NCBI GenBank assembly: GCA_043809585.1
Contig: JBDROZ010000095.1
Span: 1-33,341, forward strand
Length of the DNA stretch: 33,341 nt
Direction: 5' to 3'
Origin: Candidatus Eiseniibacteriota bacterium
Lineage (GTDB): Bacteria; Orphanbacterota; Orphanbacteria; Orphanbacterales; Orphanbacteraceae
In this document: positions 1-33,341 of the stretch, piece by piece
How positions within the stretch are numbered: the first letter of the stretch is position 1
How the letters are laid out: each line of letters starts with the position of its first letter
The notes under the pieces: model-generated
Databases searched by the model: none
What the model was told of the DNA's origin: nothing
Seen by the model: the letters and a program-made list of their open reading frames with translations, nothing else
Position numbers and translations under genes: made by a program

Positions 1-150
1 TCGGGAGGGGCCGGGGCATAACCGGGGAGCTCATGGAAGATCTGCGCACCGCAGATTGCGCGCGTCCGGAGAATGGGAGGGTTATGACCCGCCGCACGAC
101 GAGCGTCCCAGCCTGCCCCGATCCCCTCCCTCCTCCGATCCGCCCCCCCC
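1..150 (+). repeat. M1 structured repeat element, copy A (candidate ncRNA / MITE module); the window starts inside or at its 5' end
   Basis: Near-identical to 1871-2020 (about 5 mismatches in 150 nt). Homologous to 9561-9693 and to the reverse complement of 32985-33123. The 5' GGGAGGGGCCGGGGC can pair with the 3' GCCCCGAUCCCCUCCC. No reading frame is conserved across copies. Confidence 0.7.
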
Positions 151-177
151 CGCCGGCATGCTGGCCCCCCGGTCGGG

Positions 178-250
178 CTGAGTGCCGCCCGGTCCTCTGG
201 GCGGTGTATCGAAGCCTGTCCTGAGTAGGACCGAAGGTCCGTATCGAAGG
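178..250 (+). repeat. two tandem REP-like palindromic units (M2a 178-213, M2b 214-250)
   Basis: M2a is CUGAGUGCCGCCCGG-UCCU-CUGGGCGGUGUAUCGAAG and M2b is CCUGUCCUGAGUAGGACC-GAAG-GGUCCGUAUCGAAGG. The same flanks with different, still self-complementary stems recur at 2092-2142, 25129-25168, 32651-32686, 32881-32916 and 32917-32956. Confidence 0.65.
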
Positions 251-274: not shown

Positions 275-1675
275 CTACCGAATCACCACCACCCGCTCCG
301 TCACCGTCCGCTCGCCGTCTTCCATCCGCACGAAGTACACACCCGCCGGGGCGTCAATTCCGGAGGAGGTCCGTCCGTCCCAGGTGAGGACACCGGATGC
401 ATCCTTCCCTTCGAGGGCGCGGACGACGCGGCCGCGGATATCGTAGATGGTGACGGGAACGGACGAGGAGGAGGGGAGGGAGTAGCGGAGGCTCACCTCG
501 CCGGTCGTGGGATTGGGCGAAACGAAGAGACCGAAAGCGCGGCTTGGCATTGAGCCCCCCTCCGCGACGGAGGTGTAGACGTCGCACCCCTGGCCGAGCG
601 CGCCAATGAGGAAGGGGCCGTTCGGGTTGTTCTCGGGGAGGCAGGGAGATGCGGCGTCGAGGGAGTAGTCGCCGAGAATCGTCGGTGCTTCCATCCCATC
701 TCGCGGTCCACAAAACACCGGATCCGTGTAGATCGATTGATAGGGCCACTCTCCCGGCGGTATGAGCCCTGAGGTATCCACGTCGCAGTATCTTAAGATG
801 AAGTTACCCCAGCTTTCGTCATAGAGTTCGGCCCCTTCTGGGGCATCGTTTCCCCAAAGGACCGACCAACGGCCCTCATGGGGGGCATCTGGGTTGCTTC
901 CGCAGTATATTCCTCCCCCTCCCCACTCGAGAGCCCGATTCCCCGCGATTGTCGTATGCCGAAACTCGAGGTGAGCCGCATCAAAACCGCTAATGGCAAT
1001 GCCGCCACCCGCGCCGGTAGACAGGTTTCCAATCACGAGACAACTATCGAGGAAAACGGCCGCCCTATGGCCATCGCACGAGATCCCTCCTCCCCCCCAA
1101 CCAGTGTTTCCTGAGATGATCGAACGACGGACCTCCGTTACACCCTTCCAAGCGCGGATCCCCCCGCCCCCACCGGGACCGCTGCATTCTGCGATAAGAC
1201 AGTCATAGACCTTTGTGGATGCGTCCCAGGAGAGGATTCCTCCCCCTACTCCGCTCGTGTACGACGTGCAGCCGACTATTCGACAATTCCGAACCGTGGC
1301 GGCGGCTTCGACCCGAATTCCGCCTCCCCCGTTTGCACTTCCGTTCTGGATGGTCAGGCATTCGACAGTTGCTTCATATCCTTCTCCGTCCACATAGAAC
1401 CCGCGACCCGATTCCTGGCAGTCGATAACGGTGGAATCGGGACCCAAGGCGGATCTGACTACCACGGCCTTTCCGCCGAAGACGATGTCCCTATTCCCCG
1501 CCCCCGTGTAGATCCCGTCATGAAGCAGTACCGTATCTCCCGCCGCCGCGGAGTCGATTCCCGCCTGAATGGTCGGGGCGCTGCCCGTGCTGTCGGGTTG
1601 GATGTGCCATGTGCGGGAGAGGGCGGGAGAAAAAGCCAAGAAAAGCGCAATCAGACTAGCGGCGAGGCGGATCAT
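275..1675 (-). CDS. secreted right-handed parallel beta-helix protein (Gly-rich GGGGI repeats) with C-terminal T9SS/FlgD-Ig-like sorting domain
   Basis: N-terminal signal peptide MIRLAASLIALFLAFSPALS. Repeated GxGGGI/CxxxG beta-helix motifs. C-terminus ...VYFVRMEDGERTVTERVVVIR. GGGAGG RBS 6 nt upstream of the ATG at 1675. TAG stop at 275-277. Confidence 0.85.
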   Translation of the reverse strand: MIRLAASLIALFLAFSPALSRTWHIQPDSTGSAPTIQAGIDSAAAGDTVLLHDGIYTGAGNRDIVFGGKAVVVRSALGPDSTVIDCQESGRGFYVDGEGYEATVECLTIQNGSANGGGGIRVEAAATVRNCRIVGCTSYTSGVGGGILSWDASTKVYDCLIAECSGPGGGGGIRAWKGVTEVRRSIISGNTGWGGGGISCDGHRAAVFLDSCLVIGNLSTGAGGGIAISGFDAAHLEFRHTTIAGNRALEWGGGGIYCGSNPDAPHEGRWSVLWGNDAPEGAELYDESWGNFILRYCDVDTSGLIPPGEWPYQSIYTDPVFCGPRDGMEAPTILGDYSLDAASPCLPENNPNGPFLIGALGQGCDVYTSVAEGGSMPSRAFGLFVSPNPTTGEVSLRYSLPSSSSVPVTIYDIRGRVVRALEGKDASGVLTWDGRTSSGIDAPAGVYFVRMEDGERTVTERVVVIR

Positions 1676-1776: not shown

Positions 1777-1870
1777 GGAGAAACAGAAGCATGCGCCCTC
1801 CGGTTCATTTCCTCCGGCAACTAGGGAGAGTCTCCGGATCTCCTGCGTTCGGCGGGACGGGGAATCGGCA

Positions 1871-2020
1871 TCGGGAGGGGCCGGGGCATAACCGGGGAGC
1901 TCATGGAAGATCTGCGCACCGCAGATTGCGCGCGCCCGGAGAATGGGAGGGTACTCTCCCGCCGCACGACGAGCGTCCCAGTCCGCCCCGATCCCCTCCC
2001 TCCTCCGATCCGCCGCCCCG
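1871..2020 (+). repeat. M1 structured repeat element, copy B
   Basis: Positions 1871-1930 are identical to 1-60. The remainder has 1-2 nt changes per 10 nt, including a hairpin-preserving swap GGGUUAUGACCC to GGGAGGGUACUCUCCC. Confidence 0.75.
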
Positions 2021-2091
2021 CCGATTTCATATCATCGTCATCCTTCTGGAAGCAGGGGATCCAGGAGATCAGAATTCAATCCTCCGCGTTC

Positions 2092-2142
2092 GCCCTTCGA
2101 TACACTGCCCGGAAAGCTCGGCGGCACTCAGGACGAACGGGG
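2092..2142 (-). repeat. REP-like unit M2a in inverted orientation relative to M1 copy B
   Basis: Reverse complement reads CCGUUCGUCCUGAGUGCCGCCGAGC-UUUC-CGGGCAGUGUAUCGAAGGGCG, with the same conserved flanks and a different paired stem. Confidence 0.6.
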
Positions 2143-2437
2143 GGTGGTGGACGCGGCACGAATAACCGATTGCGATCGGGGGCCCGGAAAGGCGAACATC
2201 ATCCCTTCTCCTTCCTCCGAGCGGCAGTCCTTGCTGATCGTTCTGACCCACGGGCGGGTGGCCGCGACAGGGGTCCGCGAGACGCGCAGCCACCAAGCAC
2301 CAGATCCCGATCAACGTCTTGTCATCGAGAGCGAAACGCGCGGTTCACGAATTGCGGACGAAGGAAGTCAAGCGTGCGACTGGCGAGCATCGCAGCGGAC
2401 AGGAGCGGACAGGACCTGCCCGTCCGCGCATTTCATC

Positions 2438-7226: not shown

Positions 7227-8696
7227 ATGTGGAGTAACGGCGGTTTCGCCGAGAGGGTCTACCTGAGCGGGCCCTTCGCCGGGGAGAGAAGGATCCCCCG
7301 GCGCCAGAGGGTGTTCGTCAACCGGAACCTCCGGCTTCTTTCGATCGGCGCGATCGGTTTCGACCTCGATCACACCCTCGCGCACTACGACCCGATCCAT
7401 GTCGAGGAGCTGGCCTTCCGGACGACGGCCCAGCGCCTGGTCAAGAAACGGGGATACCCCGCGGCGATCGGAACGATCCGGTACGATCCTGAATTCGTGA
7501 TCCGGGGGCTCGTCATCGACCGGATGCGGGGCAACATATTAAAAATGGACTATCACAACTACGTGACCCGCGCGTTTCACGGGCGGAAGGGCCTTTCTCG
7601 GGAGCGACTCGAGCAGTATCGGCACCGACGGGTCAATCTCTCCACACCGGAATACGCTTCGGTGGACACCCTCTTCCACCTCCCCGAGGTCTACCTCTAT
7701 CTCTCGATCATCGACTTCCTCGAGGAGCGGGGGGAGGAGCCGGACTTCGACAAGATCTACACCGACGTCCGGGAAACCATCGACCAGGCCCACGCGGACG
7801 GCAGCATCAAGAGCGTGATCCGGGAGAACCCGGGGCGGTTCCTCCGCACCGAACCGAAGCTCGCCCGCGTGCTCGACCGTTTTCGATCGTGGGGGAAGAA
7901 GCTCTTCCTTCTGACCAACTCGGAGTTCTATTACACCGACGTCTTGATGAAGCACCTCTTCCGGAAGAGGCGGGGGGAGGAAGAGCGGGATTGGCCCTCG
8001 TTCTTCGACGTGATCGTCACGGACGCCCGAAAGCCCGCGTTCTTCGATCCCGGCCAGGAGGACAAGGAACGGCCGATCACGAAGATCGACCACCCCTCGG
8101 CGTTCCGGGGAGGGAATACGAGGATTCTCGAGGAGCGGATCGGATACTCCGGGGACCAGGTCCTCTACTTCGGCGATCATACTTACGGGGACATCCTCAG
8201 GGCGAAGAAGTCGGCGGGATGGCGGACCGCCATGATCGTGAACGAGCTCGAGCACGAGTTGGCGGTGACCCAGAGCATCGAGCCGAAGATCCGCATTTAC
8301 TCGGGTCTTTCCGAGGAACGGGAGCGGATCGAGATGGAGAGGGCCTCCCTCGACCGGGAGCGGGGGAGGCTCCTCCTCTTGAACGAGGGGGAGTCGGTCG
8401 TCCGGACCCGATCCCGCAGGGAGAAGAAGGTCCGGCTTCTCACCGAGGAGATCGACCGGCGGGCGAAGACGGTGAACGATCTGGACCGTCAGATCGGGAT
8501 TCTTTGGCGGGAGCTGGAGCGGAGCTACAACCGGGTTTGGGGCCCCCTCTTCCGGGAGGGGAACGAGACGAGCCGTTTCGGGCACCAGGTGAAGGACTTC
8601 GCCTGTCTCTACACGAGCAAGCCGATCAACTTCCTGAATTACGCGGGCGACCACTACTTCCGCTCGCCCATGGATCTGATGCCCCACGAGACGTAG
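7227..8696 (+). CDS. HAD-superfamily subfamily IG 5'-nucleotidase (cytosolic purine 5'-nucleotidase-like, PF05761-type)
   Basis: RVFVNRNLRLLSIGAIGFDLDHTLAHY matches the NT5C2-type N-terminus with DxDxT motif I. AAAGGGGG RBS 6 nt upstream. TAG stop. Confidence 0.85.
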   Translation: MWSNGGFAERVYLSGPFAGERRIPRRQRVFVNRNLRLLSIGAIGFDLDHTLAHYDPIHVEELAFRTTAQRLVKKRGYPAAIGTIRYDPEFVIRGLVIDRMRGNILKMDYHNYVTRAFHGRKGLSRERLEQYRHRRVNLSTPEYASVDTLFHLPEVYLYLSIIDFLEERGEEPDFDKIYTDVRETIDQAHADGSIKSVIRENPGRFLRTEPKLARVLDRFRSWGKKLFLLTNSEFYYTDVLMKHLFRKRRGEEERDWPSFFDVIVTDARKPAFFDPGQEDKERPITKIDHPSAFRGGNTRILEERIGYSGDQVLYFGDHTYGDILRAKKSAGWRTAMIVNELEHELAVTQSIEPKIRIYSGLSEERERIEMERASLDRERGRLLLLNEGESVVRTRSRREKKVRLLTEEIDRRAKTVNDLDRQIGILWRELERSYNRVWGPLFREGNETSRFGHQVKDFACLYTSKPINFLNYAGDHYFRSPMDLMPHET

Positions 8697-9444: not shown

Positions 9445-9560
9445 TAACGACGAGCTCGCTCCGAATTACTTGGCTTCCTCGAACTCCTCTTCTGCATTCT
9501 GGAATGGTCGTGCTCGTGTGGGATACCCGTCTGGAGGGGGGGGGGGCGGGGGGTCCGGCT

Positions 9561-9693
9561 TTGGGAGGGATGGGGGCATAACCGGGGAGTTGTTAGCATC
9601 TTCCGCGACGCCACCTCTTACGAGGCCGGAGAATGGGAGGGTCCTCTCCCGCCGTGCGACGAGCGTTCAAGTCCGCCCCTCTATCCCTCCCTC
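9561..9693 (+). repeat. M1 structured repeat element, copy C (no adjacent M2 units); preceded by a G10-C-G6 homopolymer tract at 9535-9551
   Basis: GGGAGGGAUGGGGGCAUAACCGGGGAG...CCGGAGAAUGGGAGGGUCCUCUCCCGCCGUGCGACGAGCGU...GCCCCUCUAUCCCUCCC. The closing-stem substitution G to A at the 5' side is matched by C to U on the 3' side, relative to copies A, B and D. Confidence 0.7.
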
Positions 9694-9758
9694 AGCCGGC
9701 CCCCCGCCCCGCCGATGCGCGGAGCCGAGCCGGAAGCTCGGGCAGTGTCCGGCCCCGC

Positions 9759-11270
9759 TCACCTTCTCGTCACCCGGTGTACGTGGAATCCGAAATCGAC
9801 GGGCTGGGTTCTATACTTATGTTCAGCGAAATGGGGCCGGTTTTCCCACGGAATGTCCGGGTACGGGACGCGGTAGCGGGTCAATCTCCAGCCGCCCTTC
9901 TCCTCCATGGCCCGTGCATACTCCATTGCCGGGTTGACGATCTCGGACCTGGGCCTCTCGATGATCCAATCGGCCTGCTTGAAGCTGTAGAGATACGAGG
10001 GCAATCCCTCGACCCGCCTCCGCGCTTCCGGATCGGAGGTTGTGATCTGTCCCACCATCCGGAGGTTGGTATAGAACATGATGGGCAGAGGATTGTGAAA
10101 TGTGAAAACGAAATCGTCCGGACCGGCATGTTCCCTCAGGAACTCGACGATCCCCTCGTTCGGTCCGTCGTAGTCGTGAGTGATCTCATAGAGAAAGGGG
10201 AGAAAGGCGCGCCCGTGAAAGAGAAGAAGTGCGCCGAGCACGGCGAACCCGAGGATCCGCTTTCTTCGGAAGCACGCCACGACCATGAGCCCCGAGAGAA
10301 GAGACAAGAGTGGGATGAGGAACACGGTATACCGTGGATTCGGCCAGAGGAGGTAGGAGACGAGCAGTATGGGGGGAACGAAGAGACACGCCGCCAGATT
10401 CAGAATCCTGCGGTTTTGGCCAAGGAGCGGGTATGCGAGGAGGATGGCGAAAGGGAAAATGTGGTTGTTGTAAGCCGCGAGGTACTCCCCGATCGCGGGA
10501 AAGAAGGACGGGCGGTGAAAGTGCTGAATATGCCGATGAACACGCGCCGGATCGGAGTACAGGAACCACGGCGTGCCCAGAGCGGCGATGCCGATCGTGA
10601 TGGCGGCGAAGCGAAAGAACAGTCTGCGTTCGAACCCGAAGAGGAGAAAGTGGATCCAGAAGCCGAGCAACGTGAAGAGACATGCACTGTTCTGCGCGTA
10701 GAAGAGGAAGATCGCGCCAACAAGGAAGAGAAGGTCGTACCGAAACCGTCCGAGTTTGCGGTAGCCTGCCAGCATGAGAAGGAACCCGAACGGCAGCAGC
10801 CCATAGTACCGACACTGTCGCATGTGCAGAAGGTATGGAGTGTTCAGCGCCAGCAGCGCGGCGGACAAAAGCGCGGTTTTTGAATCCGCCGTGTAGAGCC
10901 GGCCGACCCAATAGAGAAGCAAGATGCCGGCGAGCCCGATCATCGCGAATAGGAACCTTCCTCCGAACGTGGTCGGTCCCCAGATCCGGAAGCCGGCGGC
11001 CGCGAAATAGTGCATCGCCCAGGGCGAAAGCGTCCACACGAGATCGTCGTTGAACTGGTCGCAATTGACCGATACCCCGGGCTCGGTAACGAGGTTTCGT
11101 CCGTCCCACGCCCGGGGAAGCCAGTTGAATCCGTCTTCCCCTGAACCGATTGTCCGGGCGACGAGGGCCGTCTCCGCCTCGTCGACCCAAAAGTAGACGT
11201 TTCCGAGGTTCTTGAAGAGAAGAACCGCTCCGACCACGAGTATCAGCAGAAGAGGACCGATTGTCTTCAT
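9759..11270 (-). CDS. polytopic membrane glycosyltransferase, GT-C fold (ArnT/PMT, GT39/GT83-like)
   Basis: About 12 predicted TM helices after the signal-anchor MKTIGPLLLILVVGAVLLF, then a C-terminal soluble domain. ATG at 11270 has a GGGGAG RBS. The longer ORF to 11324 begins with GTG and no RBS. TGA stop at 9759-9761. Confidence 0.6.
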   Translation of the reverse strand: MKTIGPLLLILVVGAVLLFKNLGNVYFWVDEAETALVARTIGSGEDGFNWLPRAWDGRNLVTEPGVSVNCDQFNDDLVWTLSPWAMHYFAAAGFRIWGPTTFGGRFLFAMIGLAGILLLYWVGRLYTADSKTALLSAALLALNTPYLLHMRQCRYYGLLPFGFLLMLAGYRKLGRFRYDLLFLVGAIFLFYAQNSACLFTLLGFWIHFLLFGFERRLFFRFAAITIGIAALGTPWFLYSDPARVHRHIQHFHRPSFFPAIGEYLAAYNNHIFPFAILLAYPLLGQNRRILNLAACLFVPPILLVSYLLWPNPRYTVFLIPLLSLLSGLMVVACFRRKRILGFAVLGALLLFHGRAFLPFLYEITHDYDGPNEGIVEFLREHAGPDDFVFTFHNPLPIMFYTNLRMVGQITTSDPEARRRVEGLPSYLYSFKQADWIIERPRSEIVNPAMEYARAMEEKGGWRLTRYRVPYPDIPWENRPHFAEHKYRTQPVDFGFHVHRVTRR

Positions 11271-11436
11271 GGCTGCTCCCCGCCGGAGCCTCCGGGACTC
11301 TTCAAGTCGATGATCGGTAGGCACTCCGCAAGGACTTTACCAGAGAACGGCTTGTCTCGGGTGTGTGATCGCGGATCCATGTTGTCATGGGAATCCCGAT
11401 CGGCTCCGCAGCGGGCCCCGACCCCGAATCGCGCAC

Positions 11437-11481
11437 AAATACAAAAAGAAGCCTCGCAGGTTCCGCTATTCCCCGCGAGGC
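11437..11481 (-). terminator. rho-independent terminator downstream of the TPR gene
   Basis: On the minus strand: GCCUCGC-ggggaauagcggaaccu-GCGAGGC followed by UUCUUUUUGUAUUUG. Confidence 0.5.
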
Positions 11482-11617
11482 CTTCACGTCTCCGCTCGCT
11501 ACCCTGGGGTCCTCGCGTCGCCCCGAATCCTTCGGGGCCGTCCCGAAAACCTCGCTGGAATGATACCACATCGAGAGTGATCCGGCAACAGTTTCTTTAC
11601 GAGACAATGACCGAGAA

Positions 11618-13540
11618 TCAGTCCCTCGGCTCGAGGGCCGGGTTCCCCTTCCCGTAGACGAGACTCTGGGCGTGGGTCTTTTCGGGGCGGTGGGGGGGCG
11701 CGTACTTCCAATAGTGGAGAAACTCCCGGTAGGCGAGCCGTGCCCGTTCGTCGTCTCCCCGTTCCTCGAGCGCCCGCCCCAAATAATAGAAGGAGAGAGG
11801 GAGCACCGGCGGTAGGTCGAGCAGCGACTCGCCCCGCTCGACCACCCACTCGAGATCCTGAACCGCCGCGCCCGAGCGCCCCGACTGCACCGACGCCCGG
11901 CCGAGCAGGTGCCGGACCAGACGATCCTCCCCGCGCCCGAGCGCCCGGCGGAGCGGGGGCGTCGCCTCCCATCCCTCGCCCTGCAGGAGGAAGTAGTAGG
12001 CGTCGATCAGCTCCGTCCAGGCGCCGCCCGCGCCGGGGATGGTCTCCAGCTCGAGCCGCTTCGCCGCGACCGCGCCCCGGTCGAGGCGGTACGCCCCGTG
12101 GAGCCCCTCCAGATAGACCGGGAACCCAGGGGGCCCGGGCGCGGCGTCCGGTCTCTTTCCCGCGCGATACCGGAGTTCGGCGAGTTCGGTCCACGCCGAG
12201 TCGACACTCCCCTCCTCGAGAAAGACGTAGACGAGGCGGGCCGTCAGGTCGAGAAGGCTCTCCTCGTCGTTCATGCGATACGCCTCGTCCCTCGCTTCGC
12301 GAAGGGTCACCCTCGCCTCGGCGAACCCCCCTTCGGCGAGAGCAAGACCCGCCCGCGCCGCGAGATGGAGGAACCGAGGCCTCGTTCCTTCTTCGCCGTG
12401 GGGGTCCGGGGAGGGGGGGAGGGCGAGGAGTTTCGCCGTCTCGTCGAGGAGACCTTCCGAGTAGAGAGCGGAAGCGAGGCCGATCCGGGCGAGCGTGTCG
12501 CGGGGGAGGAGATCGAGCGCCCGGCCGTACTCTTCTCGCGCGAGATCGAGAAGACCGTCCCGGAGGGCGGCGCCGCCGAGAAGCCGGTGAGGCAGGGGGT
12601 CGAGGGGGCGCGCACGAACGGCCTTGCCGAACAGATCCCGCGCCCCGCTCCCCCCCTCCCGGGACGATGCCAGGAGGCCCCGGAGGAGGAGCGTCTCGAA
12701 ACGGTCGGGAAAGCGGGAGTGGAGACCGCGAACGATCTCCTCGGCCTCGTCCCATGCCCCCCGGACGATCGCGAGGCGCGCCTCGTGCACCCGACGGTCG
12801 AAGGGCCCCAGCCTCTCGGCTCGGACCTCGCCGATCATCTCCCTTCCCCGCTCCCGTCTCTCCGAGAGGAAGAGCCGGAAGCCGAGCCACGATCGGACGG
12901 CGTCATGGTCGCCGTTCTTCTCGAGGGCCGCCGCGCCGAGCGTGAGGGAACCGAACCGGAGGGCCCGGGCGAAGACTGCTTCCCCTTCCGGGACCACGGG
13001 GAAGTTCTCCCGGGGGGGGGCGGGTTCGCCGCCGAGCCGGATCGCCGTCGAATCGGCCAGGGAACCGATGGCGGAGGAGAGTGATCCGTCGCCGCCCGCC
13101 CCGGCCCCGATCTCCCACGACCGGGCGAAGGGAGAGAGGGCCCCCGTGACGGTGACCGCCCCATCCGTCTGCCCCGTTCGCCACCGGAGGAGGAGAATGC
13201 CGTCCAGGTCGTATTCGTCCGCCTCGCTCCGGATGTACGACCGGGCCGACATGTCGGTGGAGCCCTGGAAATCCGCCATCGCCGCGGCCAGGTTCTCCTC
13301 GAGACCCTCGGGCAGGGAGGGAATGGTGAAGGCGAGCCCCGTCTCGTCGAGGGCCCGGGCGAAGGGGAGAACGAGGCCCTCCGCTTCGCCGCCGCCGGGT
13401 CCCGGAAGAACCGCCAGGACGAGGGGCCGGGCGCCGCCGGCCGGGGCCGCCATGAGCGCCGCTCCCGCCGCGAGGAGAAAGCAGATGCGCCGCGCCGCTT
13501 TCGCGAGAATCGGGTTTTTCATCGAGCGGATCATTTCCAT
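11618..13540 (-). CDS. secreted TPR-repeat protein
   Basis: Signal peptide MEMIRSMKNPILAKAARRICFLLAAGAALMAAPAGG. Multiple TPR-like helical repeats (LGRALEERGDDERARLAYREFL etc.). Only the C-terminal 640 aa of the 1301-aa six-frame ORF are real. The N-terminal part is antisense to the permease gene. Confidence 0.7.
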   Translation of the reverse strand: MEMIRSMKNPILAKAARRICFLLAAGAALMAAPAGGARPLVLAVLPGPGGGEAEGLVLPFARALDETGLAFTIPSLPEGLEENLAAAMADFQGSTDMSARSYIRSEADEYDLDGILLLRWRTGQTDGAVTVTGALSPFARSWEIGAGAGGDGSLSSAIGSLADSTAIRLGGEPAPPRENFPVVPEGEAVFARALRFGSLTLGAAALEKNGDHDAVRSWLGFRLFLSERRERGREMIGEVRAERLGPFDRRVHEARLAIVRGAWDEAEEIVRGLHSRFPDRFETLLLRGLLASSREGGSGARDLFGKAVRARPLDPLPHRLLGGAALRDGLLDLAREEYGRALDLLPRDTLARIGLASALYSEGLLDETAKLLALPPSPDPHGEEGTRPRFLHLAARAGLALAEGGFAEARVTLREARDEAYRMNDEESLLDLTARLVYVFLEEGSVDSAWTELAELRYRAGKRPDAAPGPPGFPVYLEGLHGAYRLDRGAVAAKRLELETIPGAGGAWTELIDAYYFLLQGEGWEATPPLRRALGRGEDRLVRHLLGRASVQSGRSGAAVQDLEWVVERGESLLDLPPVLPLSFYYLGRALEERGDDERARLAYREFLHYWKYAPPHRPEKTHAQSLVYGKGNPALEPRD

Positions 13541-20837: not shown

Positions 20838-20949
20838 TCGGATCCTTAGATTCTGTCGCTATGGACCCCATTCTCCAAGTTAGCCATGAGATTCCGTAGC
20901 GAGGTTTCGGATCGCGAACCGGAACCACAGCAGGAATCTCATGGCTGGT

Positions 20950-25067: not shown

Positions 25068-25168
25068 CCGGGGGACACAATATCGGAACGGAGTTAAGTT
25101 TTGTGTCCCCCGGATTCCTACGATTCCGCCTTCGATACACCGGCCAGCTTGGCTGGCCGGCACTCAGG
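25068..25168 (-). repeat. composite repeat: M3 perfect hairpin (25068-25112) + REP-like M2a unit (25129-25168), downstream of thyX
   Basis: CCGGGGGACACAA-20 nt-UUGUGUCCCCCGG is a 13-bp perfect stem. Minus strand reads CCUGAGUGCCGGCCAGC-CAAG-CUGGCCGGUGUAUCGAAGG. This is the same architecture as 32608-32686. Confidence 0.65.
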
Positions 25169-25319
25169 GTGAACGGTGGAGGCAAGCGCGGCACAAACAA
25201 CCGCCTGCGATCGAGATCACGATTAGGCGGACACGCTTTCTCCCCCCTGAGCGGCAGTCTTCGCTGATTGCCTGCAACCACGGACAGGCCCCGCCCGTAC
25301 TCGACCTGCCCGCTGCCTT

Positions 25320-31045: not shown

Positions 31046-31394
31046 AGGGTCGGTTGTTCCGGCAGGGTCTTACCGGGTGCGAGTTCGGACGGGTCCTGTC
31101 GCCGATTGCCCGCTGCAGTGCTCGCCAGTCGCGCCATGTCTTTCTTGATTGCCCGGTGAGAACCGCGCCTTTCGATAGAGGCTCGGTCTTGTTTGTCGGG
31201 ATCGGGCGCTTGGTGGCTGCGCTCCTCGCGGGCCCCCATCGGCGCCACCCGCCCGTGGTTTCAAATGATCGGCAAGGACTACCGACAGGAGGGGGAGGAG
31301 AGGCGTTCGCCTTCCCGGGCCCCCGGTCCCCGACACCACTCGTGCCGCGCTCACCACTCCCCGTTCGTCCCGAGTGTCGCCCTCCCCCCGTCCT

Positions 31395-32492: not shown

Positions 32493-32607
32493 GAGAGATC
32501 CTCCGATGTATGAGATTGAGGTCGATTGCCTTGCTGGTCTCGGCACCGATTGTAGGGCAGACGAAGAGGAAGGGCTAGCGGGATCGGATGGAGGGGGAAA
32601 GCCCGAA

Positions 32608-32686
32608 GGGAATGCGGGGGACACGAAACGAGTTCATGTCCCCCGCATTCCGCCGGAGGCCTGTCCTGAGTAGGGCCGGAGGTCCG
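32608..32686 (+). repeat. M3 hairpin (32608-32650, 15-bp perfect stem) + REP-like M2b unit (32651-32686)
   Basis: GGAAUGCGGGGGACA-cgaaacgaguuca-UGUCCCCCGCAUUCC. Then CCUGUCCUGAGUAGGGCC-GGAG-GUCCGUAUCGAAGGG. This is the inverted partner of 32881-32916. Confidence 0.7.
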
Positions 32687-32880
32687 TATCGAAGGGCTCG
32701 GGCGGAACCAGTCCCCCACTGATTTCAAAGTGACTGAGCTCAGATGAGCAACGCTCCGATTCATTCCAAAGTCCCAAGCGCGGTGAGACTAACGAGGGGC
32801 CCGCGGGCCCGGGTGGGCGAACGTCTCTCCCCCCCCCTTTTACGTGTGCGCGTGGTCCCTCGCCTTTCCCCGGTTCGTCC

Positions 32881-32956
32881 CCTTCGAGACAGACCTTCGG
32901 TTCTACTCAGGACAGGCTTCGATACACCGCCCGGCCTCCGGCCGCGGCACTCAGGA
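32881..32956 (-). repeat. REP-like units M2b (32881-32916) and M2a (32917-32956) of repeat copy D
   Basis: Minus strand reads CCUGAGUGCCGCGGCCGG-AGG-CCGGGCGGUGUAUCGAAG then CCUGUCCUGAGUAGAACCGAAGGUCUGUCUCGAAGG. Together with 32651-32686 these form 36-bp imperfect inverted repeats around a 194-nt core. Confidence 0.7.
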
Positions 32957-32984
32957 CGAACGGGGGGGGAATCGGTGGGGCGGT

Positions 32985-33123
32985 GGATCGGAGGAGGGAG
33001 GGGATCGGGGCAGACTGGGACGCTCGTCGTGCTGCGGGAGATAACCCTCCCATTCTCCGGCCTCGTACAGTTAGCGTTGCGGAGGCCGCCAACAACTCCC
33101 CGGTTGTGCCCCGTCCCCTCCCG
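32985..33123 (-). repeat. M1 structured repeat element, copy D
   Basis: Reverse complement reads CGGGAGGGGACGGGGCACAACCGGGGAG...CCGGAGAAUGGGAGGGUUAUCUCCCGCAGCACGACGAGCGUCCCAGUCUGCCCCGAUCCCCUCCCUCCUCCGAUCC. Its 3' half is near-identical to copies A and B. Confidence 0.75.
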
Positions 33124-33275
33124 GTGCCGGTCCGCCGACCCGCCGCGTGCGGAAGACCGACGGCTGTCCCCACTCAACCTTCTACTCCCCCCGGTTCACA
33201 GACAGAAAAGCCCGGCCGGGGATTCCCGGCCGGGCACGATCTCGATCGCGCGCTTCACGCGCGCCCGTTCTTCCC

Positions 33276-33341
33276 TACCGAATCAGCGTCATCCGCTTCG
33301 ACTCGGAGAACTCCCCCGCCTGAAGACGGTAGAAGTACACC
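33276..33341 (-). CDS. 3' end of a gene encoding a protein with T9SS/FlgD-Ig-like C-terminal sorting domain (partial; continues beyond the window)
   Basis: C-terminal translation ...VYFYRLQAGEFSESKRMTLIR* parallels ...VYFVRMEDGERTVTERVVVIR* of the 275-1675 gene. TAG stop at 33276-33278. Confidence 0.6.

Follow-up and report, generated by a model that had tools for sequence, protein, structure and literature searches.

The IS110 bridge RNA, with a length of ~177 nt, and the omega RNAs of TnpB/IscB are guide or scaffold RNAs of mobile elements. The bacterial MITEs (ERIC/IRU, Correia/NEMIS, RUP and RPE) have been summarised previously (Delihas 2008, PMC2229807), and the REP/BIME and "TIR" repeat families have been linked to RAYT/TIRYT transposases (Di Nocera et al. 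2013, PMC3733652). A REP is defined as a palindrome of 20-40 bp, one end of which bears an unpaired tag, GTAG or CGTC (PMC3733652). Here we analyzed a 33,341-nt stretch of DNA (called the window below) with a GC content of 66%, in which a GC-rich imperfect palindrome of ~177 nt, named M1, is present in four copies. On balance, M1 is likely to be a lineage-specific, non-autonomous dispersed repeat of ~177 bp in an uncultured Eisenbacteria-like genome.

The four copies, claimed in the original prediction, were recovered by self-blastn of the window, by an nhmmer profile and by a covariance model (named R1), and the pairwise blastn E-values of 1e-12 to 1e-62 place the similarity beyond chance. 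The profile and R1 recover exactly these four copies in the window, the next best match having an E-value of ~0.4. They are as follows:

Positions 1-155, plus strand: M1 copy A, 128 bits with R1, flagged as cut off at the window end.
Positions 1850-2026, plus strand: M1 copy B, full length, 177 nt (blastn limits), 194.9 bits with R1.
Positions 9540-9716, plus strand: M1 copy C, full length, 168.4 bits with R1.
Positions 32970-33145, minus strand: M1 copy D, full length, 201.7 bits with R1.

Because the window start falls inside copy A, this copy is without ~21-25 nt of its 5' arm. The three pairwise alignments between full-length copies all stop at the same positions, which therefore give the limits of copies B, C and D, with GGCGGG at one end and GCCGAT at the other; the length of 140-150 nt given originally is corrected by these limits to ~177 nt. 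In self-blastn of the window, B and D are 83.6% identical over 177 nt (E 2e-47), C and D 77.8% over 176 nt (E 3e-32), and B and C 75.3% over 178 nt (E 1e-24). Copies A and B, for which 97% identity had been claimed, measure ~95% (94.6% over 149 nt, E 4e-62). The differences between copies are internal substitutions and 1-nt indels, and the ORFs over B, C and D run in three different frames. No reading frame is common to the copies, just as the absence of a consistently bounded ORF had been noted.

M1 is built of two complementary ~40-nt arms around a 60-90-nt non-palindromic core, and both strands of every copy fold as a single long imperfect hairpin. From the outside inward, an outer stem of ~18 bp is followed by a 4x4 internal loop, an invariant stem of 8 bp (GGGAGGGG/CCCCTCCC) and a stem of 6 bp (GGGGC/GCCCC). 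The closing stem proposed earlier between the 5' and 3' ends is thus real, and it runs ~18 bp further outward than described. On either strand the 5' arm is G-rich and the 3' arm C-rich, and therefore a quadruplex could compete with the hairpin. In the whole window, 17 G-quadruplex-type motifs (four runs of G3+, loops of 1-7 nt) were observed, eight of which lie in the M1 arms:

Positions 3-27 and 107-130 (minus): motifs in the arms of copy A.
Positions 1873-1897 and 1977-2000 (minus): motifs in the arms of copy B.
Positions 9536-9553 and 9563-9587: motifs in the arms of copy C.
Positions 32996-33019 and 33098-33122 (minus): motifs in the arms of copy D.

The core is composed of three invariant blocks and one fast-evolving segment of 36 nt. 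Among the conserved blocks pointed out before, CCGGAGAAUGGGAGGGU and CGACGAGCGU are indeed identical in all four copies, whereas GGGGCAUAACCGGGGAG has one mismatch in copy D. The sequences CCGGAGAATGGGAGGGT and CGACGAGCGT are also identical in four of four copies, and block GGGGCAYAACCGGGGAG carries a single change, in copy D. The hypervariable segment (35-36 nt) lies between CCGGGGAG and CCGGAGAATGGGAGGGT:

Positions 30-64: hypervariable segment of copy A.
Positions 1900-1935, plus strand: hypervariable segment of copy B.
Positions 9590-9625: hypervariable segment of copy C.
Positions 33061-33095: hypervariable segment of copy D.

Copies B, C and D differ in 24 of the 37 columns between CCGGGGAG and CCGGAGAATGGG, and this clustering is significant in a permutation test (p = 0.0002). 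The invariant runs of M1 (17, 10 and 10 nt) are all internal and longer than expected (p = 0.04). For the outer arms, 29 of 40 columns are invariant, compared with 68% of columns for the whole of M1, so that their conservation is not above average. The internal blocks are thus the best conserved parts, a pattern that would be unusual for ends bound by a transposase and that points to a constraint of another type. Invariant blocks of 17, 10 and 10 nt next to a delimited hypervariable segment are unlike neutral repeat decay, and they bring in a different reading, namely that the copies are paralogous structured ncRNA genes or a cis-acting RNA module whose variable 36-nt segment gives copy specificity, which we consider quite improbable.

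The folding results bear on this reading from both sides. The fold is strongly stable, with RNA z-scores of the copies from -2.0 to -5.7, and the reverse strand, on the whole somewhat the more stable, forms 8 further pairs, three of which are G.U pairs conserved in the copies. The RNA minimum free energy of copy B is -113.4 kcal/mol on the reverse strand (z -5.7) versus -90.4 kcal/mol on the plus strand (z -2.0), that of copy C is -112.1 kcal/mol on the plus strand versus -109.5 kcal/mol on the reverse strand, and for copy D the reverse of the strand originally assigned is the more stable one (-109.2 versus -99.5 kcal/mol). A consensus of 59 pairs finds 93.8% of cells paired, compared with 43-54% after a shift of the partners by 1-3 columns. 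Three compensatory pairs are seen, but with only three independent M1 sequences, too few to establish covariation, the two-sided changes in 3 of 59 consensus pairs are not significant (62 of 500 shuffles reach 3). The hairpins described earlier in the variable segments do exist, yet their registers differ in A/B, C and D, which is not covariation and therefore provides no compensatory evidence, and this counts against a structured RNA as well.

Transcription and genome placement are likewise divided. The reverse strand of copies A, B and C is co-directional with the gene immediately upstream and would therefore lie in the 3' UTR of that gene, but copy D is oriented oppositely relative to its neighbouring genes. 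Neither a promoter (of the sigma-70-like type covered) nor an own intrinsic terminator was found at any copy, no match to Rfam was obtained, and M1 is absent from the syntenic sites and from all ~84 kb of the relatives' loci described below; each of these results argues against RNA genes. Elsewhere in the window, nothing matches the variable segments over more than 11 nt, which also speaks against this reading, and guide-target pairing by these segments was discarded on the same result. We also considered and rejected a sigma-54 promoter in the variable segment of A and B (the spacing deviates by one, and C and D do not conserve it), a diversity-generating retroelement TR/VR pair (the A-B differences are not adenine-specific, and all copies are intergenic), a retron ncRNA (there is no reverse transcriptase) and a tRNA- or tmRNA-like element, since ARAGORN finds no such gene. 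A bolder version would have M1 be a new class of multicopy structured RNA, from a poorly sampled lineage of Eisenbacteria, with a rod scaffold, invariant blocks and a copy-specific 36-nt module, possibly guide or specificity RNAs of a mobile element or defence system with its genes elsewhere, or regulatory RNAs with C-rich seeds; we think this very unlikely. M1 would matter more only if the internal blocks and the variable segment reflected an RNA function, which four copies cannot tell.

Two further repeat families were detected around the M1 copies. The unit of the first, M2, consists of CTGAGT, a variable GC-rich hairpin and GTATCGAAG, and a pattern search found seven units in the window versus 0.02 expected. 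M2 comes in two types (a and b) with units of ~30-38 nt, which resembles the REP format, and the M2b units (CTGAGTAGGACCGAAGGTCC...) read GTAG beside a stem GGACC/GGTCC. None was found in the relatives' loci. The second family, R2, was found by self-blastn; it is ~335 nt long and begins with an inverted M2a unit, its copies are 71-72% identical, and it has no Rfam match at gathering thresholds. The positions of both families are:

Positions 178-214 and 221-249: M2 units.
Positions 178-249, plus strand: M2a and M2b units directly 3' of M1 copy A.
Positions 2095-2131, minus strand: M2 unit.
Positions 25130-25167, minus strand: M2 unit.
Positions 32666-32694: M2 unit.
Positions 32882-32910 and 32917-32954, minus strand: M2 units.
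Positions 32882-32954, minus strand: M2a and M2b units directly 3' of M1 copy D, arranged as at copy A.
Positions 2094-2430, plus strand: R2 repeat, starting 68 nt after M1 copy B.
Positions 25129-25268, plus strand: R2 repeat, shorter.
Positions 31078-31381, minus strand: R2 repeat.

From the placements of M1, M2 and R2, six intergenic regions are mosaics of three repeat families. Comparable intergenic mosaics have been described in REP-rich genomes and in Neisseria (PMC3733652). In addition, two self-complementary palindromes unrelated to M1 were noted in intergenic regions of the window (20882-20946, 65 nt, and 32609-32651, 43 nt).

The arrangement of these families also allows another explanation to be weighed, according to which the M1 copies are remnants of segmental duplications of larger intergenic blocks and have no identity of their own. 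Copies A and D do share a longer M1+M2 composite (2-267 versus 33123-32864, 81% identity over 268 nt), and copies A and B, 1.9 kb apart, are 95% identical; to this extent the idea that the copies are fragments of a larger duplication, which the original prediction named as a possible refutation, has something in its favour. However, B and C share the 177-nt unit alone, with unrelated flanks on both sides, all pairwise alignments stop at the same positions, and the A-B similarity (95%) stops at the M1 3' end although only A carries M2; therefore M1 was copied as its own unit. Segmental duplication is already disfavoured by these results, and we give it hardly any weight.

According to Pfam, the window mostly holds housekeeping genes, including those for a sulfatase, a hybrid histidine kinase, a 5'-nucleotidase, an SDR, a permease/SPFH protein and an ECF sigma factor, and further for radical SAM enzymes, an aldehyde dehydrogenase, a homoserine dehydrogenase, an MFS transporter and a transaldolase. 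All M1 copies are intergenic on the gene map and occur in both orientations relative to neighbouring genes, and the original prediction was right on both points. Copy B is placed between the T9SS-tail gene listed below, which starts at 1675, and the sulfatase gene, whose stop is at 2438, and copies A and B flank this T9SS-tail gene as direct repeats. Copy C is located between convergent ends, the stop of the SDR gene (9444) and that of a minus-strand membrane-protein ORF (9759), and copy D comes 65 nt beyond a hairpin (33210-33235, minus strand) that resembles an intrinsic terminator and belongs to a minus-strand gene whose end is near 33275. Two of the neighbouring genes are:

Positions 275-1675, minus strand: gene for a beta-helix protein with a T9SS sorting tail, with low GC3 (0.68); copy A lies beyond its 3' end.
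Positions 9759-11324, minus strand: ORF for a multi-pass membrane protein of 521 aa, with GC 58% and GC3 0.74, adjoining copy C.

The 521-aa ORF has no Pfam or NCBIfam match and is probably an acquired gene, and three of the four M1 copies adjoin accessory-looking genes (lower in GC or with a T9SS tail). A short tandem repeat, (GTGGGAT)n, was also seen at 1684-1717, just ahead of the T9SS-tail gene's start codon. Neither a transposase nor a RAYT, integrase or reverse transcriptase gene was found in the 33-kb window, and the same holds for an HUH or tyrosine recombinase. With regard to insertion marks, a target-site duplication is seen at B only (TTC/TTC) among the three testable copies, with none at C or D, and the copies have no TA termini.

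Given no reproducible target-site duplication or TA end and no visible parent transposase, a hairpin mechanism that leaves no duplication is therefore a serious variant. Its concrete form is a sub-variant of the mobile-repeat reading: M1 would be a hairpin ssDNA recombination or transposition site, recognised strand-specifically and accompanying the gain of accessory genes, for an HUH enzyme (of the IS200/IS605 or RAYT/TIRYT type) or a tyrosine recombinase encoded elsewhere. The absence of target-site duplications is what is expected for HUH-type elements, and the neighbourhood would suit such a site, with three of four copies beside accessory-looking genes, A and B as direct repeats around one of them, and M1 adjoining the REP-like M2, one type of which has GTAG beside a stem as in the REP definition (PMC3733652). 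On the other hand, the window lacks any HUH or tyrosine recombinase, the orientation to the adjoining accessory genes is inconsistent (A is inverted versus D), and the M1 ends have no conserved cleavage tetranucleotide or attC-type core sites. As ssDNA, copy B forms a stable hairpin on both strands that is stronger on the reverse strand (-61.2 kcal/mol, z -5.2) than on the plus strand (-54.4 kcal/mol, z -3.4), and in the stems common to both strands four sites pair on the reverse strand only (G.T/G.U) versus one on the plus strand only; nevertheless, this reverse-strand preference is mild and not decisive, and part of it arises because the structure was chosen on the reverse strand. Taken together, we regard a strand-specific site of this type as rather unlikely.

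Syntenic loci of relatives, ~84 kb in total, were reached from the 5'-nucleotidase and the T9SS-tail protein; protein identity is 69-79% for L014-L021 and 84% for L033. In the database, the sequences closest to the window's 5'-nucleotidase are 84%, 79% and 73% identical to it, the named ones being Candidatus Eisenbacteria, and exact look-ups of three window proteins returned none on record. The relatives' loci keep the gene order of sulfatase, histidine kinase, 5'-nucleotidase, SDR, TPR protein and permease. At the density of the window, ~10 M1 copies would be expected in these ~84 kb, and 0 were found, with no nhmmer match at E<=10 and no covariance-model match better than E ~0.4; at 79-84% protein identity, exact empty sites are not definable in these relatives. 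The spacer from SDR to TPR measures 2.2 kb in the window versus 352 nt in L014, the extra part consisting of copy C and the membrane-protein ORF.

The earlier failure to match M1 to known RNAs was confirmed, as the Rfam 15 covariance models found no match at gathering thresholds in the whole window, and at E<=10 on 1-2500 and 32500-33341 (covering A, B and D) only noise was obtained, the best being a plant miRNA hairpin on D with an E-value of 9. A scan for CCGGGGAG-N20-50-GGAGAATGGGAGGG in 596 Gb of species-representative genomes and in JGI metagenome contigs returned 7 and 6 loci, respectively, which share the pattern only (blastn); these scans required an exact 22-nt pattern, which diverged M1 relatives could escape. 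Two M1 block patterns gave only chance matches in viral contigs, and blastn found no M1 match in plasmids and phages. The six frames of B, C and D joined as a pseudo-protein had no match at E<=10 among 5.8 billion proteins, and an ORF spanning D and M2 had 0 matches among 1.84 billion representative proteins; such translated-frame searches see only M1 copies that a gene caller translated. In the literature, the conserved block of M1 retrieved human primers only, and a search for Eisenbacteria repeats gave nothing relevant.

Besides these repeats, a ~130-nt non-coding block conserved in three Eisenbacteria species was observed just past the stop of the TPR-protein gene. It has a core of UCCGCUAnyUCCCGGAAGG and is located at:

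Window positions 11445-11590: block downstream of the TPR gene.
L014 positions 8215-8350: the same block.
L018 positions 12340-12470: the same block.

One stem of this block looks compensatory, with GCCUCGC/GCGAGGC in the window versus CCUCCCGG/CCGGAAGG in L014, and no Rfam match was found for it. As a candidate for a conserved structured RNA or 3' UTR element, it is better than M1. The SDR-to-TPR spacer of L014 also contains, at 8085-8125, a tandem repeat of tgtccgtggttccatga (~2.5 units) that is absent from the window.

M1 is a discrete, multicopy unit in both orientations, confined to intergenic mosaics and absent at the same sites in relatives. The proposal of an ncRNA or mobile repeat family made in the original prediction is therefore supported for the repeat family, as a discrete unit in both orientations that the relatives lack, whereas an ncRNA is not demonstrated. 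As a dispersed repeat, M1 may have been spread by an enzyme that would be encoded elsewhere in the genome, either through transposition in trans or through hairpin-dependent recombination or copying; only four copies, all from one 33-kb window, are known. Read-through transcription across a copy would produce a rod of >50 bp, which could act as a barrier or processing site through 3' end protection, attenuation or as an RNase III target, as for ERIC, Correia and REP. Any cellular function would come about as a by-product when M1 inserts, and would not be the reason for its existence. If M1 is indeed a dispersed repeat, a phylum known from metagenomes alone gains a repeat family. Repeats of this type break assemblies, mark sites of gene gain, can be used as strain markers and, in high-GC genomes, can lead ncRNA and ORF prediction astray.

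Compared with known systems, M1 shares with the IS110 bridge and omega RNAs a similar length and a conserved, structured scaffold with a delimited variable segment, a likeness that is formal only. Unlike them, it has no adjacent recombinase or nuclease gene and no match to such Rfam families, and its variable segment matches neither the flanks nor the rest of the window. Integron attC sites resemble M1 in being imperfect palindromes (up to ~140 nt) that act as folded single strands 3' of accessory gene cassettes. M1 differs from them in having no R''/R' core sites (RYYYAAC / GTTRRRY), in the absence of an integrase gene (intI) from the window, and in its mixed orientations without a compact array, most of the intervening genes being syntenic housekeeping genes. 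With the REP and TIR families, M1 has in common that they are GC-rich palindromes downstream of genes, clustered with other repeats in intergenic mosaics and without target duplication, and the G.T pairs of its stem suggest a single-strand function. It is, however, four to eight times longer than a REP, with a large non-palindromic core and no GTAG/CGTC end tag, and unlike the families linked to RAYT/TIRYT it is not accompanied by a RAYT/TIRYT gene in the window.

The ERIC and MITE families have no sequence similarity to M1. In contrast to them, M1 has no TA termini or reproducible target-site duplication (with three testable copies, a weak point), no parent IS is known, its arms are much longer (~40 nt) and extremely GC-rich, and its conservation peaks in internal blocks rather than at the termini. 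In other respects the likeness is close. M1 is non-coding and falls in the range of ~100-200 bp, its terminal inverted repeats form a long stem-loop, it is dispersed in multiple copies, and its presence differs between related genomes (4 copies in 33 kb versus 0 in ~84 kb). Like ERIC and the MITEs, it is an imperfect palindrome of 100-200 bp without coding capacity whose transcript would form one long stem-loop, and its copies are intergenic, lie in both orientations and vary by internal substitutions and small indels. M1 thus looks like a member of the known MITE/ERIC-like kind, so far seen in this window only.
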